A stretch of DNA of 64,000 nt from a virus. Taxonomy: Duplodnaviria; Caudoviricetes. The stretch's first letter is position 1; the number at the start of each line of letters is the position of its first letter. The notes below the pieces were generated by a model. The model made no database searches. It worked only from the letters and a program-made list of their open reading frames with translations, and was not told where the DNA came from. The position numbers were made by a program, and so were the translations under genes. Positions 1 to 21,000 of the stretch are shown in pieces. The stretch is from IMG/VR virus record IMGVR_UViG_3300028591_000184, positions 1 through 64,000 of that record; one strand, given 5' to 3'.

Positions 1-2
1 GC

Positions 3-2706: not shown

Positions 2707-2730
2707 ACAAATAACGAATTTACACGAATT

Positions 2731-3324
2731 ATGGCAAAAGATTGGAAAGGCGGCAGCGCATCGACATTCAAGACCATCGGAGCGAGCAACCACACAGACC
2801 ACGAAAGAGGCGACGCCGACTACTACGCAACCGAACCAGCGGCAACGGACTGGCTCTGCAAGATTGAGCAGTTCAAAAGCCCGATATTGGAGCCGTCATG
2901 CGGTGAAGGGCATATCAGCCGACAACTGATTGCACACGGCTATGAGGTAGTCAGCCGTGACCTTGTGGATAGAGGCTACGGCGAAGTTGCCGACTTCCTG
3001 TTCTTCAACAACGAGCAATGGGAGGGCGACATCATCACCAACCCACCCTATGCAGCAGCGCAGGAGTTCGTGGAGCAAGCACTGAAGATGATACAGCCAG
3101 GGCGCAAGGTTGCCATGTTCCTGAAGCTGACCTTCCTTGAAGGCAAAGCACGACAGACGTTGTTCCGCGACAATCCCCCCATCCGCGTGTGGGTCAGTTG
3201 CTCACGTTTGAAGTGTGCCATGAACGGCGACTTCGACAAATACGAAAGCAGCGCAACGGCTTATGCGTGGTTCATCTGGGAGAAAGGCTTTCAAGGACAC
3301 CCCGAAATTCGGTGGTTCAATTAA
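2731..3324 (+). CDS. adenine-specific DNA methyltransferase
   Basis: DYYAT, ILEPSCGEG (motif I) and IITNPPY (motif IV). Confidence 0.85.
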   Translation: MAKDWKGGSASTFKTIGASNHTDHERGDADYYATEPAATDWLCKIEQFKSPILEPSCGEGHISRQLIAHGYEVVSRDLVDRGYGEVADFLFFNNEQWEGDIITNPPYAAAQEFVEQALKMIQPGRKVAMFLKLTFLEGKARQTLFRDNPPIRVWVSCSRLKCAMNGDFDKYESSATAYAWFIWEKGFQGHPEIRWFN

Positions 3325-3368
3325 GTAACAACGAACACGAATTTATCACGAATTAAATAAAAGGAACT

Positions 3369-3647
3369 ATGTTTTTAGACGACGAATTAGAGTCCATCTG
3401 TCAAGATGAGACCATCTGCAAAGAAAAATCATTTATGTTGTTTCAGGCATGTCTAAAGCGCATACCGAAACCCGAACAAGTTAGACCGCAAGACTTCATG
3501 AATGAGATTCGGAAGATTGAAGGTGGTTGGAAACTATTCTGCAAGCGACATCCTCAGTACAGACCAGAAGGTTTTCGTGACTTGATGATGAAGCAATGCG
3601 GCGACATTCTAAGCAAACCTGTACTCAAATACTTACATTGGGATTGA
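3369..3647 (+). CDS. hypothetical protein
   Basis: 92-aa ORF in an operon, A-rich leader. Confidence 0.65.
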   Translation: MFLDDELESICQDETICKEKSFMLFQACLKRIPKPEQVRPQDFMNEIRKIEGGWKLFCKRHPQYRPEGFRDLMMKQCGDILSKPVLKYLHWD

Positions 3648-3650
3648 CGT

Positions 3651-4202
3651 ATGAACAAAGACGAGAACAAAGTATTTGTCGTTACAAGCGGCGAATACTC
3701 AGACTACCGCATCGACCGCGTTTTCTCAACACGCAAAAAAGCGTTGGAATACCTCGACACGAAAGACGATAAATATACGCTGGAGGTGTTCGACCTCGAC
3801 GAGCCTATTGAACGCAAGACGCAGATATACGAAATCAGCTTTGAACTCGACAAGAAGAAGGTGTTGAACGTCAGAACGACGTGGGACGTCCGCTATAAGG
3901 ACACGATACACATCTGCGGTAGCTACTTCAACAACTGCAAGACGCTCGACATCTATGTGGAGAGCGACAGCCGCAAACGTGCGCTGAAGATAGCATCGGA
4001 ACGCTACGGAGCCGTCATCGCAGGAGAGAAGACTATGTACCCATATCTGCGTGTTGGAGTGCTCAGACATTACTACAGCATGTGTCAAGCCTTTTTTGAC
4101 TTCAAGACGGGCGAAATGGTGCTGTTCGACAGCGAGGAGTTGGCCGTTGAACTACCTACCTTCATCAAGGTAAGGAGAGCCGAACCGTTAAAGAAGCGGT
4201 AG
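3651..4202 (+). CDS. hypothetical phage protein
   Basis: 183 aa; N-terminal VFVVTSGEYSDYRIDRVFST motif common in small phage proteins. Confidence 0.75.
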   Translation: MNKDENKVFVVTSGEYSDYRIDRVFSTRKKALEYLDTKDDKYTLEVFDLDEPIERKTQIYEISFELDKKKVLNVRTTWDVRYKDTIHICGSYFNNCKTLDIYVESDSRKRALKIASERYGAVIAGEKTMYPYLRVGVLRHYYSMCQAFFDFKTGEMVLFDSEELAVELPTFIKVRRAEPLKKR

Positions 4203-4297
4203 CCAATTCCTCCATCTTCTTGAACACGAATAAGGAATTGAATGAATTTTCGCGGGTATCTTCCCGCATAGTATTAACAAATAAAATTAAAGGAACT

Positions 4298-4594
4298 ATG
4301 ATTAAAATTTTGTTCGAGGTCAGCGAAGACTTCATCAGAGAGAGTGCATCACCCGAGACTGCTACTGCTAAGATAGATGCAGGAGACGGCAAACATGCAA
4401 TGAAAGCCTTATTCGACATGTTAGGCTTCAAACAGCTTGAAAATCAGATTGACGAGGGTAAGACCGAGTTCGTTGTAACACCCGACAAGTTGGATGACAA
4501 GTCGAAAGAGTTGTATAACAACGAAATCGGGGAAATCTGCCTACTTGCTGTCTTCTCGGAAATTGACAAGAAGAAGGAAAAATCTGAGGGCTAA
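4298..4594 (+). CDS. hypothetical protein
   Basis: ATG at 4298 after an A-rich leader, within ORF 4220..4594. Confidence 0.65.
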   Translation: MIKILFEVSEDFIRESASPETATAKIDAGDGKHAMKALFDMLGFKQLENQIDEGKTEFVVTPDKLDDKSKELYNNEIGEICLLAVFSEIDKKKEKSEG

Positions 4595-4652
4595 CCGCCA
4601 ATCGCTACCGCTGCATCAATCGTGTGGCGGTAGCAAATTATTCATTAGAGTT

Positions 4653-4805
4653 ATGATAGAACTATCAAAAGACAAGAAATCAGAAACGTATATCATTACG
4701 CGGACAGATAACGAAGGCTTCCATCGTCAGTTGAATATAACGCAAGGTGAGATGGAAGAACTAAGAGATTTAATAACCTTGGTTCAAGAAGCCGAAAGAG
4801 CATAA
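4653..4805 (+). CDS. small hypothetical protein
   Basis: MIELSKDKK..., fills the gap in the operon. Confidence 0.5.
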   Translation: MIELSKDKKSETYIITRTDNEGFHRQLNITQGEMEELRDLITLVQEAERA

Positions 4806-4809
4806 AACT

Positions 4810-5391
4810 ATGAAGTTAGGTAGTCATAATTCTTGGTCATTTGCACCAAAAGAAAAATGGTGGTTTCCTGCGTTCACCGCACGTTGCCAAAGTAAGAACA
4901 TTCAACAGCAATACGAAGCAGGAGTAAGGCTCTTTGACCTACGACTGCAACTCAACCGAGCGGTATGGTATGCAGCTCACGGATATTGTCTGTTCTCTGT
5001 GAACTGGCTGAATGACATCCTGTGGCTCTCACACAGGGAAGATAAAGTCTACGTCCGTGTTTTCCTTGAATACAACAGAAAACCGCAAGGCGAAGAAGTC
5101 ATCATCAATGAGTTCAGCGATATGTGTATGTATCTTGAACACAGGTTTGAGAATATAAGGTTCTTTGGCGGCATACTGAAGTACAACGGCAGGCACGTCC
5201 ATAACTTCAAGAACACCGACGTTCCTCAGATAGAGAGCCGTTTCAGCTCCACGACAACGTGGTTCAAGTCCGGCAACAGATTTCTCGCCATCTTAGATGA
5301 CTGGTGGCCGTGGCTATACGCACGTTTCCATAACAAGGAAGCATACGCAAGCCACGACCATAATAAATACCTATTCTTGGATTTCATATAA
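4810..5391 (+). CDS. PI-PLC X-domain-like phosphodiesterase
   Basis: GSHNS, CQ...I.QQY.AGVRLFDLR, AAHG motifs of PLC-like TIM-barrel phosphodiesterases. Confidence 0.75.
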   Translation: MKLGSHNSWSFAPKEKWWFPAFTARCQSKNIQQQYEAGVRLFDLRLQLNRAVWYAAHGYCLFSVNWLNDILWLSHREDKVYVRVFLEYNRKPQGEEVIINEFSDMCMYLEHRFENIRFFGGILKYNGRHVHNFKNTDVPQIESRFSSTTTWFKSGNRFLAILDDWWPWLYARFHNKEAYASHDHNKYLFLDFI

Positions 5392-5401
5392 AAAAACAAC
5401 T

Positions 5402-5587
5402 ATGGAAAAGAAAAATATCAAAGACCTCGGCTTCGCGAACGGGTGGTCCGAGGACTCAGTAGAGCGAAAGCTTGTAGAAAAGGCAAAGAATGCCGGCTAT
5501 CGCTTCAAAGAAACATTCATCCCACCGCATACGTTCGAGTACGTTTGCGAAGAAGCAGGACTAAAGTATCGCACGAATTGTTCATGA
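5402..5587 (+). CDS. small hypothetical protein
   Basis: ATG at 5402 after an A-rich leader; KDLGFANGW. Confidence 0.55.
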   Translation: MEKKNIKDLGFANGWSEDSVERKLVEKAKNAGYRFKETFIPPHTFEYVCEEAGLKYRTNCS

Positions 5588-5597
5588 CTATCTTATT

Positions 5598-6407
5598 ATG
5601 TGTAATGGATTTATACAAATACCAAGTGACTTTTTTGAGAGCGACTATTGGTGTTGCTCTCGCACATATAGCGAAGTTGAAGCTATCCTCGACATCATAA
5701 CTCAAATCAGAACTGAAGTGGATGGCAAAACCACCACTATCGGAGGGCGTGAAGTTACATGGGGACAGAATGAGTGGCCTGTATCGGTTAGAACCCTTGC
5801 CGAAAGGTGGAAATGGACAGAGCGTAGAACGAGAACTTTCCTCTCATCGCTCAAAAATAATGGAATTATAGATGTTGACAATTCGCAAGGTGTTTCCGTT
5901 ATTCGCCTAATTAAATACATATCAGGTGACACAACAAATGACACAGCAAATGACACAAATAACGGTCTGAATATCAATGAGTTAGTCGAACTTGTGACAC
6001 AACGAGTGACACAACGACTGACACAACAGGGGAATATAATTATTCAAGAGCAACAAAGCAGAGAAGAAACTGAATTATCATTGTTCGATGACGAAGTTAT
6101 GTGTGACGAATTTACATTTGAAAAATTTTGGGAACTATACGACAAAAAGGTTGGTAAAGATGAAGCGGAAAAACTATATTCAAAGATGTCAAGAAAGGAC
6201 CGCAAGGCAATATTTGAATATGTGCCACGCTACAAAAATGCACAGCCTGACAAGAGTAAACGTGTTAACCCAGCCAGATTTTTACGCAGAAGGGTATGGG
6301 AAGATGAGATTATCGACTACCACCAAGCCCGACGAAACCCTATTGGTTTTGACCTTACTGATAACACTAACAAGGATAAATATAAAAATGATATAGACAC
6401 ATGGTAG
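5598..6407 (+). CDS. replication initiator (lambda O/replisome-organizer-like)
   Basis: N-terminal winged-helix-like region (SVRTLAERWKWTERRTRTFL), central iteron-encoded linker, C-terminal FEKFWELYDKK...FL domain; directly upstream of a DnaC-like ATPase. Confidence 0.8.
   Translation: MCNGFIQIPSDFFESDYWCCSRTYSEVEAILDIITQIRTEVDGKTTTIGGREVTWGQNEWPVSVRTLAERWKWTERRTRTFLSSLKNNGIIDVDNSQGVSVIRLIKYISGDTTNDTANDTNNGLNINELVELVTQRVTQRLTQQGNIIIQEQQSREETELSLFDDEVMCDEFTFEKFWELYDKKVGKDEAEKLYSKMSRKDRKAIFEYVPRYKNAQPDKSKRVNPARFLRRRVWEDEIIDYHQARRNPIGFDLTDNTNKDKYKNDIDTW
5927..6025 (+). repeat. iteron array inside the initiator gene (putative origin)
   Basis: TGACACA at 5927, 5939, 5951 and 5995, 6007, 6019 (12-bp period), with an IHF-consensus TATCAATGAGTTA at 5972-5984 between the two triplets. 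Confidence 0.75.
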
Positions 6408-6979
6408 AAATAGGAGAAGTAATAAAACAATATCGCGATAGCGGCTTCAAACCTAATGACAATCGCATCTATATTAATATACCTGATGCGAGAACTGCTC
6501 TGATGAAAGGGTTAGTGCGCTTTTGCGGGGAGCATACACAATGGCTTCCTGAATATGAAAAAGTTGCAGAATGGCTCGGCGATAATAAAGGACGTGGGCT
6601 TCTTTGCTTTGGCAACTGCGGACGTGGAAAAACACTGATAACACAAAGAATAATTCCTGTCTTGATAAACTTCTATCACGGAAAGGTACTAAACACGATA
6701 ACCGCCGCCGACATCGGACGGAAATATGACGAAATCAGCGAGTATAAACTTATTTCAATAGATGACGTTGGTGTCGAGGACGTGTCGAATTTATATGGAG
6801 AAAAACACGACTACTTCCGAGAACTCGTTGATATGGCCGAACGTAAGCAGAAACTTCTTGTCATATCAACAAACCTTACGCTGAAAGAAATCGCGGAACG
6901 ATACGGCGACCGTACCATCGACAGACTGCGGGCCATCACAACGACGGTCTTGTTTGAGGGGGCTTCACTGAGAAGATAA
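6401..6979 (+). CDS. DnaC/IstB-like helicase loader ATPase
   Basis: Walker A GNCGRGKT, Walker B ISIDDVG, STNL...RYGDRTIDRL. Confidence 0.85.
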   Translation: MVEIGEVIKQYRDSGFKPNDNRIYINIPDARTALMKGLVRFCGEHTQWLPEYEKVAEWLGDNKGRGLLCFGNCGRGKTLITQRIIPVLINFYHGKVLNTITAADIGRKYDEISEYKLISIDDVGVEDVSNLYGEKHDYFRELVDMAERKQKLLVISTNLTLKEIAERYGDRTIDRLRAITTTVLFEGASLRR

Positions 6980-7039
6980 AAGGAAGGGTGGTCGTAAAAC
7001 CTTACCCCTCCTCGGAACCAACACGGCTAATGGTGGTTT

Positions 7040-7312
7040 TTATTTCCTGAATATGCGAGAAGCAAGCCATATCAGGCCATCTGTAGTGAAGTTCGCCAGT
7101 ATGTCGCTCCCAAAATCCAACGCGAAACTCTGCTTCTCAACCTTATTGGCAACACGACTGATTAATTCTTGTTGTCGCCGCAAAGCTTCCATCGTCTCGA
7201 TGTGATTTCTGTTAATCATAGAGAGCTGTGCAAACAGAAGCCTGTCCTCGTCAGACATCTTTTCATATATCTGACGAAGCATCTGTCTGCGTATCAGCTC
7301 ACCGTATTCCAT
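7040..7312 (-). CDS. hypothetical protein (operon gene 8)
   Basis: 90 aa, coupled to the upstream gene; C-terminal FALDFGSDILANFTTDGLIWL. Confidence 0.7.
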   Translation of the reverse strand: MEYGELIRRQMLRQIYEKMSDEDRLLFAQLSMINRNHIETMEALRRQQELISRVANKVEKQSFALDFGSDILANFTTDGLIWLASRIFRK

Positions 7313-7812
7313 TACACATTGAAGTACGAACGGATATTATAGATGCCGTCCTTGTCTTTGAGTGTTTTCAGTGCCATCTTGTAGCAGGCGGTGATAATGT
7401 CGCTGTCAGACGGAGAAAGTGGCTTCCCAATCAATTCGGCGATGGTATCTCCGAAGTCGGAATACATCTTGTTCATCTCTACCCACAGGGAGCAAGAGTT
7501 GAAGCAAGGAACTTGCTCTGTCTCAAGACCAAATTGCGACATGGCAGCCTTCCACTGCTCCTTCGGCCAAGGTGCTTTCGGTTCCATGCCGGCGATAATC
7601 TTCTCGGCTTCCTTGGAAGTGAGATAGTTCCTCCATTTGATAGACTCCAGTTTGTCAAGCCATTCTTGGGCGACTTCAGGCTTGTTGGTGATAAACCAGT
7701 CCATCATCTCCTTGTGGACGTTACCGAAAACGTGCATGAAAGCAACGTTCTCCGATGTTGCCATGAGTTGATACAACTCACGGAACTCTTTTTTCATTTC
7801 TTCTTGTGTCAT
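7312..7812 (-). CDS. hypothetical protein (operon gene 7)
   Basis: 166-aa helical protein ending LKDKDG...IRSYF. Confidence 0.75.
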   Translation of the reverse strand: MTQEEMKKEFRELYQLMATSENVAFMHVFGNVHKEMMDWFITNKPEVAQEWLDKLESIKWRNYLTSKEAEKIIAGMEPKAPWPKEQWKAAMSQFGLETEQVPCFNSCSLWVEMNKMYSDFGDTIAELIGKPLSPSDSDIITACYKMALKTLKDKDGIYNIRSYFNV

Positions 7813-7864
7813 AATACTATAGATTTAACTCTTTTTCTTTCCTGTTCTCGTAGTCTTTCTGCAG

Positions 7865-8215
7865 TTAGGGCAGGGTGCTTGCGGAATAATCCTCGTCGGG
7901 GTCTGAGGCAAGCGCGTTGTCTTGGGTTCTGAAAATCTTGTCATACATCTTCAGGTATAATGTGTCGATATATCCTTCAATAAGTTCAAGCCATAAGGCG
8001 CAATAACTTGAAAGGAAAGATATTGCAAGCACGAATGGTAGGTCGGAAAAACCGACAGACCATAATCCGTAGGCAAGGACAGACCACATGGTGACGCACT
8101 TCGGGCAGTTGATGACAGGAAATCTACCGACCAAATCTTCTACCGCTTTGATTAGGCCAAGGTGGTTCATCGTAACACAGACGAAAATGATGCTCGCAAT
8201 ATCAATCCAATTCAT
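7865..8215 (-). CDS. membrane protein with CxxC (operon gene 6)
   Basis: Hydrophobic segments around CPKC. Confidence 0.7.
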   Translation of the reverse strand: MNWIDIASIIFVCVTMNHLGLIKAVEDLVGRFPVINCPKCVTMWSVLAYGLWSVGFSDLPFVLAISFLSSYCALWLELIEGYIDTLYLKMYDKIFRTQDNALASDPDEDYSASTLP

Positions 8216-8676
8216 TACGCTGTTGTCACATTTAGGGTTGTGGTGATAGCAACACAGTTAGTAACATTGTCGCAAGGCTGAACATTTGTTGGAGCCGCAG
8301 CTGACGTTCCTACAGTCAGCGTCGGGCTTGTGGCTGCGGAACAAGGTACGCAGATGGTGCAATAGATGTTGTCCGTAACTGGGCATACTCCGCACTGGCA
8401 CTGATACCCGCACCGATATGGCATGTAGGTACATGTGCCACTGATAAGCACTTCCTGACAATACTGTGTAGTACCGTTGACAGGCAAGGCAACGGGTGCC
8501 CCGATGGGTGTCGCTTTCAGGTCTGCTGTTACAGGAAACGTCTCTTGGGTGCACAGTTTACGATTACCACATGTGTAGTGGTCGAGCTGCAGCAGATAGT
8601 TGGCATTTGCCGCAGTGCCTCCTGGTATCGTAGTGAGCGATACCACAAAGGTCTTTCCATTGTTGTTGCAATTCAT
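8215..8676 (-). CDS. Cys/Thr-rich beta-type hypothetical protein (operon gene 5)
   Basis: 153 aa with many Cys (RCGYQCQCGVCP, CTICVPC). Confidence 0.75.
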   Translation of the reverse strand: MNCNNNGKTFVVSLTTIPGGTAANANYLLQLDHYTCGNRKLCTQETFPVTADLKATPIGAPVALPVNGTTQYCQEVLISGTCTYMPYRCGYQCQCGVCPVTDNIYCTICVPCSAATSPTLTVGTSAAAPTNVQPCDNVTNCVAITTTLNVTTA

Positions 8677-8706
8677 AATACTTTTGTTTTATTTGTTTGG
8701 GGGCAT

Positions 8707-9000
8707 CTATTCTATTACACCGGCCCCTTCTTGTGCTATGGGTAAATTCGGAATTTCCGATTTTTCTTCGTGCGGGTCATACACAAGTGTTTCGTTGTCT
8801 TGCAGGGCTTCTACCTTTTCTTTCAGTTCTGTAATACTGCCTGACATAATTTTTATGTTCTCCTGCATATCCTGTATCATACGGACTGCATTGTAAGCAA
8901 ACTGCGCTGCGCAATACTGCCACTGTGTCCTACGCTCGTTAGGATAGATACGACAATTCAGACAATCGCCCGAACATTGGAATTTCTTTTCTTCTGCCAT
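8707..9000 (-). CDS. Cys-motif coiled-coil protein (operon gene 4)
   Basis: CSGDCLNC...C followed by a heptad-rich segment. Confidence 0.7.
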   Translation of the reverse strand: MAEEKKFQCSGDCLNCRIYPNERRTQWQYCAAQFAYNAVRMIQDMQENIKIMSGSITELKEKVEALQDNETLVYDPHEEKSEIPNLPIAQEGAGVIE

Positions 9001-9065
9001 AGTTTTGATGTTTTTATTTTCGGTCTTTTTCGGTCAACAGAAATAACCGAATTTTTATAGTGCGT

Positions 9066-9287
9066 TTATGCACTATAGTTTTTCTTGAAAAATTTTATTA
9101 TCTGACTCGCTATAAATGGGCTACTTTGTAACTTAGCAACGGCCTCGGCAAGCTTATCACCGCTGACCATTGCTCCATGCTGTCCCATGATATTGATAAA
9201 CTGGATGAGAGCCTTGCGCCCTCTCTCCGCTTCCTCGTCACTACTGGCGTAGATATTGAGGGTGATGGGTTTTGCACCTTTTTCCAT
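9066..9287 (-). CDS. hypothetical protein (operon gene 3)
   Basis: 73-aa ORF in the operon. Confidence 0.65.
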   Translation of the reverse strand: MEKGAKPITLNIYASSDEEAERGRKALIQFINIMGQHGAMVSGDKLAEAVAKLQSSPFIASQIIKFFKKNYSA

Positions 9288-9304
9288 ATTCTGCCGTGTT
9301 TATG

Positions 9305-9673
9305 TTATTCATTTATTGAAGGGAGTGGAACTTCGTCCCCGACTGCCTCAATGGTGGTGGTGAGAGGCGGTAACTTTCCACCCGTGATGCCGCGCAGGAT
9401 TTCATATCCTTGCGCCAAGGTATCTCTGTTGTTTCCAATCCACGAAACGATACCGTTGGCAATATCACCTGTCCTGTCTATCCATGTCGGCTGAACAGGG
9501 TCATAGTCGGGTAGCTCTGGAAGATCCTTCGCGAAATAGTCATAGAGTTTTGCCGCTTCATCTATATCGCCTTTTGTGGCGAATAGACATTGTAGCTTCA
9601 AGGTCGCTCTACTGGTAGGACGGATTGCTTGTATCATCTCTAACTTCTTTTTCTTGTTGTTAAACCATTTCAT
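9305..9673 (-). CDS. hypothetical protein (operon gene 2)
   Basis: Likely start ATG 9673 (MKWFNNKKKK). Confidence 0.7.
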   Translation of the reverse strand: MKWFNNKKKKLEMIQAIRPTSRATLKLQCLFATKGDIDEAAKLYDYFAKDLPELPDYDPVQPTWIDRTGDIANGIVSWIGNNRDTLAQGYEILRGITGGKLPPLTTTIEAVGDEVPLPSINE

Positions 9674-9738
9674 TATGCCGTGTTTTGAAAGTGGATAGCC
9701 CGAAGATATTTGCATCAACGGGCTATCACGTTAACCTT

Positions 9739-10374
9739 TTACAGTCCGCAGCCGCAACCGCTTGCCGGACAGGGGCAGGGCTTTGCATCCTGATAGAGGG
9801 CTACACGCTGAGGGTTCTCAGAGTAGCGACCAGTCATCAAGCCTGTCATCACCTGCTGAGTTGCAACCTGCGAAGCGGCAAGCTCTGCCCGTTGCATAGC
9901 CGTAAGAGTACCCTGCTGAGAACCGGAAACGGTGTCAGTGATGGTCTGGGTGATGGTCTGGTCACCATTGATACGCTCAGAACGCTCAAGGTCGAAACCG
10001 CGAAGAATGCGGTCAACGGTACGCTGGGTGTTGTCATGCTCCGTTTCCAGAAGCTTCAGCGAAGCCTGATAGTTGGCAGCAGCAAGCTCTTTTGCACCCT
10101 GTGCAGCTTCACGGGCACGCTCGGCTTTCGCTGAACCATAGAGGGGACCGAATATCCATGCACCGATACCGGCAACAGCACCGACAACGCCGACAGTCAA
10201 GCCTGCTACGGCAACACCACTTGGACGCTTGGCAGCCATGTGACTCGTTTTCACCTGCTCGTAAGGTGTCATACCACCCCAACCATGATTGTAGCCACCG
10301 CCATAGCCCCAGTTACGGTCGTAGTCTCGGTCGATACCTCGGATAGCCATGAGGTCATTCATTTCTAATGCCAT
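9739..10374 (-). CDS. Gly-rich membrane/coiled-coil protein with Cys-rich tail (operon gene 1)
   Basis: WGYGGGY N-terminus, GxxxG-rich helix (GVAVAGLTVGVVGAVAGIGAW), coiled coil, C-terminal CPCPASGCGCGL. Confidence 0.8.
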   Translation of the reverse strand: MALEMNDLMAIRGIDRDYDRNWGYGGGYNHGWGGMTPYEQVKTSHMAAKRPSGVAVAGLTVGVVGAVAGIGAWIFGPLYGSAKAERAREAAQGAKELAAANYQASLKLLETEHDNTQRTVDRILRGFDLERSERINGDQTITQTITDTVSGSQQGTLTAMQRAELAASQVATQQVMTGLMTGRYSENPQRVALYQDAKPCPCPASGCGCGL

Positions 10375-10435
10375 AATCTTAACGTGTTTAAGTTGTTAAT
10401 AAAAAAAGTTATCCTGTCTTTGCGCATTGACACAG

Positions 10436-10443
10436 CAAAGGTA
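10436..10443 (-). promoter_or_regulatory. Bacteroidetes -7 box for the eight-gene operon, overlapped by an iteron copy
   Basis: CAAAGGTA on + is TACCTTTG on -. TGACACAGCAAA at 10428-10439. Confidence 0.6.
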
Positions 10444-10488: not shown

Positions 10489-10722
10489 TCACTTTTCGAT
10501 AGTACGCCTAAACCTTCGTAATATCCTGTATATGCTTGCTTCACTAATATCGTATTTACCAGCAAGCACTGCTACCGCATAAGATACCTTACCTCCTTGA
10601 GAAACAATATCCTCATAGTCAGAGTAAAGGTTAATATATTTGAAGTCACCCATCTTTATGTCATAATCTGATAGCAACTTCATCGTTTCTTTGCTAATTT
10701 TTATAAAATCCACGGCTTTCAT
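10489..10722 (-). CDS. Mor-like helix-turn-helix protein
   Basis: C-terminal AVLAGKYDISEASIYRILRRF helix-turn-helix. Confidence 0.75.
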   Translation of the reverse strand: MKAVDFIKISKETMKLLSDYDIKMGDFKYINLYSDYEDIVSQGGKVSYAVAVLAGKYDISEASIYRILRRFRRTIEK

Positions 10723-10896: not shown

Positions 10897-11415
10897 TTAC
10901 CTTCGTCGTCGTCTAATCCACAAGACGACAAATCCTACCCCCATCAACACGGCACACACCGTGCCGCCCATCATCAGCTTGCCGTAGTCCAGGCACACCC
11001 TCTCCCACTTCGTCAGCTTGCGCTCTACGGGCACAGGAACCTGTATGCTGTCGGTCTTGAAGACGGTGTCGGTGTGTGCTTCCTTCAGCCGCTCTATTTC
11101 CCGTTGCAGGCGGTCGTTCTGTATGAGCCATGCCCGTTCTGCCGCCTTCAGCTGTATGCCGAACTGCGCCATCATTGCCGAGTCCACCTCACGGATGACG
11201 GTCGTCTGGCGGTCGATGACGCTGTTCGTATGGTGCACAGTGTCGGTGACATGTTTGTATTCCGTCTTGACGGTCTCGACGGGGATATACTGCATCTCCT
11301 TGCACCCGCAGAAGGTGACGAGGCAGGCGACGATGACAAGTGTCGCAATGAGGGTGAGCATTCTGGCTACCACCTCCTTGATAATCTTTTTAATCCAGTC
11401 GTTGTCGTGTTCCAT
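10897..11415 (-). CDS. spanin-like lipoprotein (possible unimolecular spanin)
   Basis: Downstream of the endolysin; lipobox-like TFCGC, central coiled coil, C-terminal TM helix followed by RRRRR. Confidence 0.6.
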   Translation of the reverse strand: MEHDNDWIKKIIKEVVARMLTLIATLVIVACLVTFCGCKEMQYIPVETVKTEYKHVTDTVHHTNSVIDRQTTVIREVDSAMMAQFGIQLKAAERAWLIQNDRLQREIERLKEAHTDTVFKTDSIQVPVPVERKLTKWERVCLDYGKLMMGGTVCAVLMGVGFVVLWIRRRRR

Positions 11416-11423
11416 ACCTTTAT

Positions 11424-11831
11424 TTATTTAATGTGAAGCACCTGCCGCCGGTTTCCCTTTTGCGAGAAGCTGACGTGCACCCAGTTGTAGCCGTATTCGT
11501 CGATGAGCTGGTCAAAGGGCAGTCCGAGTTCCTGTATCTTATCGAACAGCTTGCGGTTGTCCGATGGTTTGTCGCTGACGGTGCGGATGTCGGCCGCCTC
11601 GCCTGTGACGTGCTGGCTTTTCCTTGCGCCTCCGACGGCCTTGTTCAGCTTCTCGCTTCGGTAGCCGCTGGTGATGATAATTGGTTGTCCCCACGCCTCA
11701 CGCAGAGGGTCGAGGACATTGGAAACCAATGCCGTCAGGTTTGCCCTCACGACATTATCGGGTGTGTTGCTGATGCCTTTCCTCAGAGCCGTGGCCGATG
11801 CCGTCAGCTCGTGCATGGTGAAATACTTCAT
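11424..11831 (-). CDS. endolysin, peptidase M15 family
   Basis: ITSGYRS, SQHVTGEAADI, WVHVS zinc-peptidase motifs. Confidence 0.88.
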   Translation of the reverse strand: MKYFTMHELTASATALRKGISNTPDNVVRANLTALVSNVLDPLREAWGQPIIITSGYRSEKLNKAVGGARKSQHVTGEAADIRTVSDKPSDNRKLFDKIQELGLPFDQLIDEYGYNWVHVSFSQKGNRRQVLHIK

Positions 11832-11837
11832 AGTCTT

Positions 11838-12290
11838 CTATTCTTTGATGTCGAGATATTCCTTCAGATACGGCACTCTCTCCACGAACTTCAGTGCCAC
11901 GACCCAGTGGAGGAAGTCCACATACTTGCGCAGCGTCGTTCCCTCGCGGAGTATCTTCTGCCAGTTGCTCAGGATGTTGATGGCGTAGAACCATATCGCC
12001 GCCATGTAGATGCACGACACGGCCTGCACCGCCGACGCTTCCATGTGCATATAGTGTCCGATGATGAACACGAAGGCACCGATGGCGACAAGTACGCAGC
12101 ATTCGGTGAACGTCTTCCGTACCTTCGCCCATTTCCATCCGTCGGCGTGCAGGGTGTCTTCTATCCATCCAGATATGAAATTCGTTCCCATGAGGATGAG
12201 GATGGCGGTGATGAAGTCCTCGATGGGCATGAAGAAGCCGGAAAGGGCACTGAGTGCCACTAACAGCAATGCTTTGATTTGTTCTATCAT
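11838..12290 (-). CDS. holin
   Basis: Multi-TM protein directly upstream of the endolysin; likely start ATG 12290 (MIEQIK). Confidence 0.75.
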   Translation of the reverse strand: MIEQIKALLLVALSALSGFFMPIEDFITAILILMGTNFISGWIEDTLHADGWKWAKVRKTFTECCVLVAIGAFVFIIGHYMHMEASAVQAVSCIYMAAIWFYAINILSNWQKILREGTTLRKYVDFLHWVVALKFVERVPYLKEYLDIKE

Positions 12291-12328
12291 TTTTCCTTCT
12301 AAATGTTTGGTTGTTCCAGATATTCTTC

Positions 12329-12410
12329 GTAACTTTGCAACTGTCCCCGCGATAAGGTAAGAGTCAGATGACTTTGTCATCTGTAAACCTATGTGGGGAC
12401 TTTTTTTATT
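12329..12410 (+). ncRNA. candidate antisense small RNA with its own promoter and terminator
   Basis: TTTG 12306, 19 nt, TAACTTTG 12329. Stem GTCCCCGC/GTGGGGAC encloses CAGATGAC-TTT-GTCATCTG, then TTTTTT. Confidence 0.55.
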
Positions 12411-18071: not shown

Positions 18072-21000
18072 TCAATATTAAAGAATACCTTCATGATTTT
18101 CTTTATCACGCCCTCATAGTAGAAGCGTATCTCGCGGTAAAACACAGGCTTAGTCCAGTCGACGTTTTCATATTCGCTGTCGTAGGCTACCCAGCTGCGG
18201 ATGCCGTTGATTACGGACGTGTAGTCGCCCGGCTGTGACGCTCCGAGCCATACTTGGGTAAGAGCCGCGACATAGACGTAATTCTTCAGATAGTTATTGC
18301 CGAGCAGCCAGCTATTATAACCGTCGCTCTCGCGTATGAGCACCTCGCTCATCCACTTGTCGTCGCTGAACTGGCTTGCTTCCGACGAAACGTCGGCATC
18401 GAAGGTCTCCTGCTTCGTACTTTCCTCTCCTGTGTCTATATTCACGGTCTTGAAGCTGTAGGTTCCCGAAGGAATGACAGGGTACAGGCCGACAGTAACA
18501 GGCGTATAGACATGGTAGCAATCTTCACCGGCGGAACTTTTTATGGAGGAATATCTACCAGCCACCGCACGGCATATCCACTCCATCATCGTCATGTCGT
18601 TAGGTTCGCCGGAGAAACCGGGCCCTGCGGGCGGGACTTCAACGAGCCGCTGTATGATGATTTCCGCATCCTGCGACTTGGTGTAGATGACACCCTGCGG
18701 TCCGAGGTCGTAGAGGAAGTGGCCTTCGCGGTCGTAATACCGCATGACTACATTACCATCTACGATGCCGAAGCGTATCTGCTTCTGACTGGTCTCGGGG
18801 TTGAAGACGCTCAGTTCCGTTCCGCTCAAAACGAAACGTGGCGTGTCGGTTTCCCTGTCCGCACCCGATGGGAATGTCCGTATCTCGTTGCCCACCATGT
18901 CGATGTGAGGGTTGTCGGCGTCGGTGTCGTCAAGATGCATTCCAACCTCTTCAAGGTCGCCGCGCTTGACGGAGAGGTTGATTTGGTCTCCAAGATTTTC
19001 AATGGCAGCTTCCACCGCTAATCCATTCCTGTCAAGCATCGCCGCCAGTGCATTGTCGAACGTCTTCCAAACGAACTCCCAACCTGCCGCACCAGCGGGA
19101 ATGGTGTATAGGAAACTCTCAAATGTAAACCTCAGCTCATTATTATACAGAGTCCAACTTTCTCCGATATGCTCGTTCTTTATCTGGTATGGCGGCACCG
19201 ACGTATCATCGGAGTCTACGGCGTTGTTTAGATACATATAGAGTATGTGCCATGCAGCAACGAGTTTCTTATATACCTCCGTACCAGCCATTACCATGCG
19301 CTCTGCAATGCTCATCGCACTCAGATAGTCGGCTTTCGCCTTGTTCCACCTGACGAGCACACCCTGTTTCTCCATGCCGCCCGTGATGATACCATCGGAA
19401 GCAACATTCTGTATCTTCGTAAGGGCAGCGACGGTATAGCGGTCGTCGGCACGCTCCCAAGCAAAGGTGGTGTTGTTGTTCTTCGCCGTGAAACGCCACG
19501 ATGCACCGCCCTCGCTGGCAGGCTCTTCGTCGGTATCGAAGTAGAGGTCGCCGACGTGCGCCTTCTTTACGTCCACCGTTGTCCAATCCACGGCAGGGGC
19601 ATTCTGAAGGGTCGGCTGGCCCGAACCGAACCATATACTGTGCTCCGACATTCCGTCGGACATATTGTTGACAATCTCCTCGTAGTTCTTGCCTGACTTA
19701 CTCCTGAAGTCGCCCGTCATATCGTTGCCGTGCGGTGATATGATACTGACGAGCTTCCCTTCAAGCGTGAAGCTGTCGATACCAGCATACTCAGCGAAGC
19801 ACGGAGCCTTCACATTGTTCCATGTGTCGGGCGTGAAGCCGGAAGCAAGGATGATGGCCGACTGACGGATTGCACGCTCCGTATCTGTCACCACACCGCC
19901 GACGGTGGCATCCCATCCGAGAGCCACCACCTCATCGCCGGCATTGGCTACCATGGCGCCAAGTCCAGAAGCAGCATCCACCTCTATCCAGTGGTAGCTT
20001 CTCGTCGTACCGTCTGCACCAACCACGTCGATGGGCGTTTCCGACGCACCGATGACGAGCTTCCACCAATACTTATTGGCGGCATCCGTACCGCCGGCCT
20101 CCAGCATGTGCGACTGCTGGCAGAGTACCTGGTCGCCGCGGCGGAACTGATTACCCGTCCTGCGGCTGCCATCATCGGCCAGCCACAGCAGACGGACGTG
20201 TCCCTCCATGCCCGACGGATAGACGTGTCCCTCGATGTCGGTCGAAGGCACCCATTCGATAAGGCCTGACGTGCCTTGCTGGTGTATGCCCTCCGTGGGC
20301 AGCATCACCAAGTCCGTCTTCATGCGTGCATGGCTCAGCACCACCGTGCCGCCGACATGGCGTATCTCGTCGATGAGCAGTTCAAAGAACCGTGCCGAAC
20401 CCGTGACCGTCAGGTCGTGCGTCGTCAGCGCACCGCCGATGGTGGCATCCCCCAATATCTCCAGTGCCCTCACCACGAGGTCGCGGAGAGAACCGTCACC
20501 CGTCGCCTCCAGTCCATACGACCCGCCGCTGCCGAGCTTCAGACCCTTCAGGAAGGTGAGCAAGCCCGACGCCGTGTCGTCGTTCAGCTTAGAGAGAAAA
20601 TATGACCCACCGTAGGTGTTGATGAGAGCACGAACTTGCGCCACAGACAATCCACCTCCACCGCTGTTAATAAACGAGTCAATAGAATTGATTTTATTCT
20701 CTATTCGCTGTATCGAACCAACCTGCTTCTCATCACGAAGCGTAACATCGTAGGTAGGTATATTGGCATTTCCATATTCTTTGATGGTCAGCTGGTCTAT
20801 AAAGACAGACCCGTCAATGTGAAGGTCTTCATCGACGAACTGAAGAAGGTCGCCTTCTTTGATACTGTCATGCAAGGAACGAATGACCCCAGCAGATTGT
20901 AAAGCTAAGTCATGCTGACGAGCCATAAAAAGCTCGTCAATACGGGGGATATAGGTGTATCGGGTGTTCTCGTTCTTCTCAAGGAAACGAAGCGAATATG

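Follow-up and report, generated by a model that had tools for sequence, protein, structure and literature searches.

A conserved, cysteine-rich operon of Bacteroidales phages that probably encodes a stapled complex on the host inner membrane

The window analyzed here is a stretch of 64,000 nucleotides of viral DNA (IMG/VR record IMGVR_UViG_3300028591_000184), whose minus strand carries at positions 7040-10374 eight compact open reading frames, g1 to g8, confirmed at the coordinates first given (Table 1). The alignment places the true start of g2 at 9673 (MKWFN...) and not at 9718. The genes are co-oriented and tightly packed, as described in the initial annotation, with intergenic spacing of -1 to 65 nt and one-base overlaps at g5/g6 and g7/g8. 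Their placement after lysis genes and convergent with replication genes was also borne out: immediately upstream are genes for an endolysin (phrog_894, E 7e-39), a holin-like protein and a spanin-like protein, and from the downstream side the genes for a DnaC-like loader and a DnaD-like initiator run toward the cluster.

Table 1. Genes and regulatory features of the operon and its upstream flank in the window
Feature	Coordinates	Strand	Description
Spanin-like gene	10897-11415		Unimolecular-spanin-like; upstream of the operon, separate from g1-g8
g0	10489-10722	-	77-aa regulator, C-terminal helix-turn-helix; directly upstream of g1-g8
-7 promoter box	10436-10443	-	Bacteroidetes-type, TACCTTTG; read from the sequence
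Palindrome	10415-10432	-	18 bp, TGTCAATGCGCAAAGACA; 3 nt past the -7 box
g1	9739-10374	-	211-aa membrane "stalk"
g2	9305-9673	-	122-aa soluble protein; 9305-9718 in the ORF list
g3	9066-9287	-	73-aa soluble protein
g4	8707-9000	-	97 aa; Cys4 knuckle, coiled coil, acidic tail
g5	8215-8676	-	153-aa Cys-rich beta sandwich
g6	7865-8215	-	116-aa three-helix membrane protein
g7	7312-7812	-	166-aa all-helical DUF7841 protein
g8	7040-7312	-	90 aa; hydrophobic or amphipathic C-terminus; optional eighth gene
Terminator-like element	6972-7013	-	Hairpin 6980-7013, then U-run 6972-6979; 3' of g8

The cluster had been regarded as a self-contained unit with its own -7 box, and the promoter, a candidate operator, a terminator and a dedicated helix-turn-helix gene were all located. 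The g0 product is similar to phrog_17790 (E 3.7e-20) and, in Pfam and PHROGs, weakly resembles Mor and late-activator proteins; of the 13 IMG/VR loci, 10 have its gene ahead of g1, as does the Prevotella prophage L016. In 12 of 14 loci, the region ahead of g1 has a TAnnTTTG box corresponding to TACCTTTG at the equivalent position. The palindrome that follows it is the sole close match of the TGTCAATGCGCAAAGACA type in the window (1-2 mismatches), two further matches having 3, and the same or a different dyad follows the -7 box in most loci. It is a probable operator to which the g0 protein would bind; its reading as a 5' hairpin of the RNA was dropped in favor of a DNA site because the RNA folding energies are weak. 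At the other end, the terminator hairpin abuts the stop codon of the convergent DnaC-like gene, and the 71-nt stretch 6972-7042, which includes two hairpins, folds with -24.1 kcal/mol (z -2.8). Together, and as a rule with g0, g1-g7 constitute a single transcription unit that has a promoter of host type, its own palindrome and a terminator.

Conservation of this gene neighborhood across phages, proposed earlier as a check, was found throughout: in a profile search the order g1-g7 was identical in 19 of 19 other loci (13 from IMG/VR and 6 further), among them a prophage of a Prevotella isolate (L016) and the cultured Bacteroides phage BS162P1. The carriers include Prevotella sp. tc2-28, Bacteroidales metagenome-assembled genomes and a Bacteroides salyersiae phage, and every source is a sample from the anaerobic gut or rumen. 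All genes are under purifying selection (pN/pS 0.30-0.54) at saturated synonymous sites (pS 0.69-0.83) and, being conserved across loci as well, are therefore more than chance open reading frames. The most conserved product is g5, with identity of 73-85% in 12 of 13 viral loci and 56% in L001, compared with 27-80% for the other products; in most carriers, also among phages without a capsid gene in common, it stays at roughly 75-89%. Of 12 distinct IMG/VR loci, 7 have the eighth gene, as do L016 and L017. It is absent from L001, L009, L010, L013, L014 and L015; a distant variant, L030, has no g6 and retains g5. No homologs were found outside phage contexts. Among 50,697 phage records, blastn with the DNA and tblastn with g5 and g1 gave no match, and tblastn with g7 gave one, BS162P1.

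The GxxxG membrane-helix protein with a cysteine tail, noticed in the initial annotation, is g1, whose only hydrophobic helix, of Gly-zipper type, spans residues 54-76 and whose C-terminus reads CPCPASGCGCGL. It further comprises a conserved SPYEQ motif at the N-terminus, an extensive helical stretch and, at the C-terminus, a CxCP..GCGC tail; Y38, E39 and C202 are invariant in the alignment, and C207 and C209 nearly so. The charge distribution leaves the topology ambiguous (K+R 34 vs 31), and in L030 the bias favors a cytoplasmic stalk. Longer, fused forms of g1 were searched for, and none was found. The g2 protein has a conserved C-terminal PLPPINE motif and no family match in Pfam, PHROGs or a profile search of PDB sequences; g3, found in all loci, is characterized by the motif FNIYA..E..A and likewise has no family match. 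The CxxxCxxC coiled-coil protein corresponds to g4, in which the three N-terminal cysteines (C9, C13, C16) and a fourth (C30) are all invariant and are also retained in the distant copies in L015, L030 and BS162P1. Its coil weakly resembles trimeric coiled coils in the profile search of PDB sequences.

The very Cys-rich beta protein is g5, which contains 14 cysteines and has an all-beta AlphaFold model (pLDDT 80) in which the Cys loop is a low-confidence region. The family comprises 408 clusters at 90% identity and 51 representatives at 50% identity, all of them of 176 aa or less and none fused; no signal peptide was found in its members. Its family-wide cysteine core consists of Cx5C, a CxC..CP cluster and CC. 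Translation of g6 is coupled to that of g5, and this coupling is conserved: in all but one of 13 distinct loci, the distance between the g5 stop codon and the g6 start codon is within -4 to +10 nt. The CxxC membrane protein, g6, has three hydrophobic helices and invariant H18, C37-x2-C40 (CPKC) and E77. Over 17 sequences, its K+R residues are distributed as 1 in the N-tail, 49 in loop 1, 1 in loop 2 and 32 in the C-tail; the protein is therefore predicted to be N-out/C-in, an orientation that brings H18, the CxxC and E77 to the cytoplasmic side of the membrane. A DsbB/VKOR-type membrane thiol oxidoreductase would have redox cysteines facing the periplasm, which is not the predicted side of this CxxC, and g6 has no Pfam or NCBIfam match.

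Small helical proteins had also been described, and g7 has an all-helical model (pLDDT 91). It is a member of DUF7841 (PF25223), scoring 42.4 bits where the Pfam gathering threshold is 25.2 and covering positions 1-113 of the 114 in the model; in distant operon copies, too, this domain comes after g5 and g6. Every match to g7 in a Foldseek search of BFVD was a DUF7841 protein from a crAss-like or another uncultured phage, and the PDB gave no match to the model; the top Foldseek row, Erv2p (E 1.5), was rejected as noise, g7 having no conserved CxxC. Scans of all products against Pfam, PHROGs, PADLOC and NCBIfam assigned DUF7841 as the sole family. Neither a lysis-category PHROG nor a Pfam holin family matched g1-g8 at E <= 0.1, and neither a signal peptide or lipobox in the products nor a gene for an outer-membrane lipoprotein in the operon was detected. 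Profiles of six products found nothing below E 0.006 among PDB sequences, and what they did retrieve was coiled-coil noise. For the models of g5 and g7, no Foldseek or VIA-align match exceeded Z 5.2 or reached an E-value under 0.1. These searches agree with the earlier statement that no virion, lysis or replication family is recognizable among the products. The literature on DUF7841, BS162P1 and crAss annotation terms yielded no functional study.

The cysteine motifs of g4 and g5 bring to mind an auxiliary redox or metal module, in which these two proteins would hold Fe-S or Zn-thiolate sites and, with g1 and g6, would feed into host electron transfer or the handling of metals or oxidative stress, to the benefit of the lysogen or infected anaerobe. 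The Cx3Cx2C...C pattern of g4 with its match to HiPIP (PF01355; 18.9 bits, below the Pfam gathering cut-off of 22), the ferredoxin-like CxxCxxC and C-P motifs of g5, the low confidence of its Cys loop, as expected of an empty metal site, its very strong conservation, as cofactor-binding proteins tend to show, and the exclusively anaerobic gut or rumen sources are consistent with this role. However, the wider g5 family keeps only the core given above and not the CxxCxxC of the window, the fold searches with g5 retrieved from the PDB only generic CS/HSP20 beta sandwiches (best Z 5.1, no match), no similarity to redox families was found in Pfam or NCBIfam, and homologs are confined to phage contexts, so we consider such a module improbable. 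Very improbable is a toxin with its immunity protein deployed at lysis, where g5 would be a stable Cys-rich effector and the coupled g6 would protect sister lysogens in the manner of colicins. In size and helix number g6 is comparable to the immunity proteins of pore-forming colicins, the two genes are translationally coupled, g5 has no export signal and the operon adjoins the lysis genes, but five other co-conserved genes would be left without explanation, L030 keeps g5 without g6, carriers that have no integrase have no lysogen for g6 to protect, and Pfam and NCBIfam revealed no similarity to toxin families.

The genomic context varies among the carriers. In five near-complete phages with the operon, the major capsid protein of the window is absent from all five and its large terminase from four; the operon is therefore accessory, a module that phages exchange and no core component of the virion. 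Three of five phages have an integrase, which neither a complete 100-kb phage nor the cultured BS162P1 possesses. The operon most often stands directly after lysis genes, and the 5 kb upstream contain, across loci, many unrelated endolysin PHROGs; in L015 it lies between a terminase-sized gene and the portal gene, and in L014 beside replication genes. The proximity to lysis genes may reflect only a common insertion slot for accessory genes.

In crAss-like phages, cr116_1 carries a related stalk and g5-like insert directly after its endolysin gene, and crAss001, of the same subfamily, has neither the insert, nor DUF7841, nor a homolog of the cr116_1 stalk or cap, an observation that speaks for dispensability. 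One weak g5-like match (E 1e-4) was found in crAss-like cassettes. Comparison of g1 with the "viral fiber" of cr4_1 by hhalign aligned the GCGCN tail only (probability 1.8%), and g5 showed no relation to the 128-aa protein of cr4_1; since these comparisons were negative, the crAss-like cassettes are, beyond DUF7841 and the E 1e-4 match, no more than distantly related or analogous. Stalk-like proteins of crAss-like phages were labeled "spike protein" or "viral fiber" by their depositors, which is in line with an accessory role in the virion: the g1 stalk and g5 cap would then be a capsid or tail fiber, a decoration or an ejected membrane-penetrating protein, and the remaining products assembly factors. 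The location of the operon at the far end of the window's late structural-lysis operon, the conservation of g5, which resembles that of a structural protein, and the hydrophobic Gly-rich segments that g1 would share with tape-measure and ejection proteins agree with such a role. Nevertheless, carriers with unrelated capsid and terminase genes, a host-type promoter and candidate operator belonging to the operon itself, the polytopic membrane protein g6, the tblastn results for g5 and g1 (no match) and g7 (BS162P1 only) and the lack of the module in crAss001, whose virion structure has been solved, make it unlikely. The coat suggested in the initial annotation is likewise unlikely as a part of the virion, because the operon is common to phages with unrelated capsid and terminase genes, and the likeness to spore-coat clusters of gut Firmicutes phages found no support. 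Apart from a loose resemblance of g5 in size and Cys content to the Cys-rich exosporium proteins ExsY and CotY, nothing favors a conversion cassette of spore-coat or exosporium type: no spore-coat, exosporium or BclA family of Pfam matched at E <= 0.1 and the hosts (Prevotella, Bacteroides and other Bacteroidales) are non-sporulating, so that this explanation is close to refuted.

What stands of the earlier proposal is a multi-protein membrane or metal-binding assembly, which fits the invariant Cys/His sets of four products, the two membrane proteins and the conserved coupling. The operon probably encodes a complex on the host inner membrane that is stapled by cysteines or metal. Our leading reading, put forward tentatively, is that this membrane-anchored, metal- or disulfide-stapled complex acts on the envelope during the lytic cycle and controls lysis or superinfection. 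The products would assemble in fixed amounts into a putative complex on the cytoplasmic membrane, where g6, with its His/Cys/Cys/Glu site at the cytoplasmic face, would dock the co-translated beta sandwich g5. The single-span stalk g1 with its Cys-rich tip and the Cys4 coiled coil of g4 would be joined through putative metal-thiolate sites (Zn or Fe-S) or, alternatively, through disulfides after exposure to oxygen, and g2, g3, g7 and g8 would be soluble, putatively helical subunits. The complex, which would not be part of the virion, might adjust when lysis occurs or make the membrane impassable to superinfecting phages; its action on the envelope of the infected cell in the lytic cycle is the weakest step of the proposal.

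Synteny, selection, own regulation, mobility and the link to lysis genes argue for this membrane-complex reading, as do the two membrane proteins, the predicted cytoplasmic-face site of g6, the lack of a signal peptide in the g5 family, the charge bias of the L030 stalk, the g5/g6 coupling, the dispensability seen in crAss001 and the invariant cysteine sets in g1, g4, g5 and g6. The absence of g6 from L030 argues against it, a g1 stalk in the periplasm could not meet a cytoplasmic g5, and no lysis role is needed, as the lysis genes of the phage already look like a full set. Searches of PHROGs and PADLOC revealed no similarity to known lysis regulators, exclusion or defense proteins. A defense or counter-defense system, i.e., a membrane-anchored sensor-effector that aborts or excludes competitors or neutralizes a membrane-linked defense of the host, would match the moron-like layout with own regulator, promoter and terminator, the exchange between unrelated phages, the membrane proteins and the occurrence in prophages. 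It is nonetheless quite unlikely, given that PADLOC produced one match at chance level only (E 0.017), that seven small non-enzymatic proteins are atypical of known systems, that g5 is far more conserved than usual arms-race proteins and that phages without an integrase also carry the operon. Also unlikely is that the membrane complex is a new type of machine in phages of anaerobes, namely a metalloprotein assembly whose Zn-thiolate or Fe-S centers would serve as a redox or oxygen switch and link lysis, exclusion or release to conditions in the cell or its environment.

Bacteroidales phages of the gut and rumen are among the most abundant animal-associated viruses, and most of their genes are unexplained. 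Strong conservation within an exchangeable module points to an important, unrecognized step of infection in anaerobes, and the presence of the operon in the cultured BS162P1 and in the prophage of Prevotella sp. tc2-28 makes direct testing feasible.

Several known systems resemble the operon in part. The DUF7841 family has g7 as a member and occurs in distant operon copies and in crAss-like phages, but it covers one gene of seven and is a family without known function or paper. The head fiber proteins gp21 and gp29 of crAss001 show no sequence similarity to g5 and g1 (tblastn, 50,697 phage records). The exosporium ExsY/CotY proteins with the BclA nap share small size, Cys richness and possible self-assembly with products of the operon, but differ in having no sequence match, no listed fold match and sporulating hosts. 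Spanins (Rz/Rz1 and the T1 gp11 type) likewise combine a membrane anchor, a coiled-coil stalk and terminal cysteines linking subunits, whereas the operon has no outer-membrane lipoprotein partner and the window has a separate unimolecular-spanin-like gene. Lysis control of the T4 type (T, RI, RIII) also involves small membrane and soluble proteins beside lysis genes, and the T4 holin T, a protein of ~210 aa that crosses the membrane once, between a short N-terminal and a large, cysteine-bearing C-terminal part, is similar to g1 in all these respects; it differs in the lack of sequence similarity, in the separate holin-like gene of the window, in having three genes vs seven and in the ambiguous topology of g1. 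Although lambda RexAB is not homologous and the operon has many more subunits and is also found in phages without an integrase, both are accessory systems with their own regulation that combine a membrane protein with soluble partners and are exchanged between phages.

The window was taken from an IMG/VR virus record of 73 kb. Its minus strand bears a long late operon that spans roughly 37.1 kb to 7.0 kb; among the products are a tape measure protein (PF20155) and large tail proteins. The tail genes are followed by genes for a holin-like membrane protein, an endolysin and a spanin-like protein, then by the small HTH gene g0, and then by g1-g8. Genes for a DnaD-like initiator and a DnaC-like loader converge from the plus strand on the end of the cluster, which agrees with the initial annotation in placing it downstream of lysis genes and opposite replication genes. 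All gene products described there were found in the sequence, the sole correction being the start of g2, which is at 9673 and not at 9718. The spanin-like product looks like a unimolecular spanin in its layout and would round out a holin-endolysin-spanin set.

Features of the lysis region and of the g1-g8 operon
Feature	Position	Strand	Remarks
Holin-like membrane protein	11838-12380	-	After the tail genes
Endolysin, M15-type	11424-11831	-	phrog_894, E 7e-39
Unimolecular-spanin-like protein, 172 aa	10897-11415	-	N-terminal hydrophobic segment ending FCGC (lipobox-like); C-terminal helix, then RRRRR
g0, 77-aa HTH protein	10489-10722	-	phrog_17790, E 4e-20; weak Mor-like matches
-7 box, Bacteroidetes type, TACCTTTG	10436-10443	-	Sequence reading
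18-bp palindrome TGTCAATGCGCAAAGACA	10415-10432	-	3 bases downstream of the -7 box; no other close match within the window
g1	9739-10374	-	
g2	9305-9673	-	
g3	9066-9287	-	
g4	8707-9000	-	
g5	8215-8676	-	
g6	7865-8215	-	
g7	7312-7812	-	
g8	7040-7312	-	

Relatives of the operon were sought by tblastn and profile searches. The gene order g1-g7 is the same at 13 IMG/VR loci and on two Logan contigs bearing distant g5 relatives; it also recurs in the cultured Bacteroides phage BS162P1, a genome of Prevotella sp. tc2-28 and two MAGs of Bacteroidales. Of the eight genes in the initial annotation, g8 proved to be optional. Saturation was seen at synonymous sites, and pN/pS ranges from 0.30 to 0.54, with the lowest value for g5. 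By these comparisons the genes are genuine and form a unit. For g5, protein identity is 73-85% at all viral loci but one (12 of 13; L001 has 56%), and its neighbours at these loci are 27-80% identical. Clustering of the g5 family gives 408 groups at 90% identity; at 50% identity there are 51 representatives, each about 150 aa long and none fused to another domain. In 12 of 13 distinct loci, the g6 start falls between -4 and +10 nt from the g5 stop.

The cluster has its own -7 box, as had been noticed initially, and in 12 of 14 loci the region ahead of g1 carries such a box, then a dyad and then a CA-rich leader of the form TATTAACAAC..CAAACAC. At the equivalent site of related phages the sequence of the dyad differs in some loci. 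Folded as RNA hairpins, the dyads are weak, and they are therefore read as operators; the palindrome in the window is a likely operator, bound in the simplest case by g0, the HTH protein encoded next to it, a binding that we infer. A terminator-like hairpin with a U-run is located 3' of g8, and the operon forms a transcription unit of its own.

The distribution of the operon among phages was analyzed by a search for capsid and terminase homologues in five near-complete operon-bearing phages. No homologue of the window phage's major capsid protein was detectable in any of the five, and its large terminase has a homologue in one (44% identity). At two distant loci the insertion site is different. 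In L015 (5230-9605), a terminase-sized gene and the portal gene flank the operon, and a DnaA_C-like HTH gene takes the position of g0 ahead of it. In L014, the operon closes the replication module, and a gene for an HNH/NUMOD homing endonuclease (6373-7158) is inserted between g1 and g2. Many different endolysin families are encoded in the 5 kb upstream of the operon across loci, and the slot right after the lysis genes is therefore the usual one. A tyrosine recombinase is present in three of the five carriers, and none was found in a complete 100-kb phage with terminal repeats or in BS162P1. By these genome comparisons, the operon is exchangeable and independent of virion type. In three of the upstream 5-kb flanks (L001-L018) we also observed a reverse transcriptase (phrog_1423, E 1.5e-88), which is probably part of diversity-generating retroelements beside tail fibre genes.

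A module with a weak tie to the operon, probably a more distant relative in the usual post-endolysin slot, was found in the crAss-like phage cr116_1 (NC_055882). Its seven-gene insert (2725-5992), bounded by the endolysin gene and a homologue of crAss001 gp31, contains an HTH gene and genes for two small HExxH-like proteins, a Cys-tailed stalk, in which a Trp/Gly-rich helix is combined with a CNCGNSYNGCNC tail, and a g5-like protein whose match to the BS162P1 copy has an E-value of 1e-4. In crAss001, from the same subfamily, no homologues of the module genes were found, and the same junction holds only a short gap (18866-19102); the module is therefore dispensable for that virion type. In another crAss-like phage, cr4_1, an in-frame TAG (5879-5881) inside a CDS annotated as "outer capsid protein/viral fiber" is consistent with stop-codon recoding in its late genes.

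In g1, a conserved SPYEQ motif in the N-terminal part precedes a Gly-zipper helix; a long helical region follows, and the protein has a CxCP..GCGC tail. The flanking charges of g1 (34 vs 31 K+R) leave the orientation undecided. In L030, a distant operon variant, the positional equivalent of g1 has a short acidic N-tail of only about 12 residues before the membrane helix and lysines after that helix, which favours a cytoplasmic stalk. The g4 protein carries four invariant cysteines in every variant (Cx3Cx2C and one more), followed by a coiled coil. The g5 model (pLDDT 80) is an eight-strand beta sandwich with a poorly defined Cys loop (residues 91-96), and the cysteines conserved in the wider family form a Cx5C, a CxC..CP cluster and a CC pair. 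For g6, the K+R counts (1, 49, 1, 32) clearly point to an N-out/C-in topology, which groups the invariant His18, Cys37, Cys40 and Glu77 on the cytoplasmic face. The g7 protein, of the DUF7841 family (Pfam PF25223), is all-helical in a confident model (pLDDT 91), and in L030 (477-2791) the DUF7841 gene directly follows g5, without g6. Solved-structure matches were found neither for the operon models nor for the profiles.

The fixed gene order and conserved translational coupling, the presence of two membrane proteins, the lack of a detected export signal on any operon product and the invariant Cys/His sets in four of them lead us to propose a multi-subunit complex that would assemble on the cytoplasmic side of the inner membrane and be held together by metal-thiolate sites. 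The operon carries its own control elements, passes between unrelated phages, is found in carriers lacking an integrase and neighbours lysis genes, and we therefore favour a role of this complex at the cell envelope during the lytic cycle, either in lysis timing or in exclusion of superinfecting phages. This reading as a whole, in which the role is the weakest step, is offered tentatively. A virion fibre, a defence or counter-defence module and a redox or metal auxiliary module are, in that order, less likely alternatives with low probability; a toxin-immunity pair is very improbable, and the spore-coat-like cassette evoked in the initial annotation is hardly credible.

The sole catalogued element in the operon is DUF7841, a family without assigned function for which no paper was found in the literature. 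The Bacteroidales cassette and its link to DUF7841 are confirmed, and the tie between the Bacteroidales operon and the crAss-like variants is only weak. Neither phrog_16490 nor BclA-like domains gave a match for this subgroup. The operon fits no described system.
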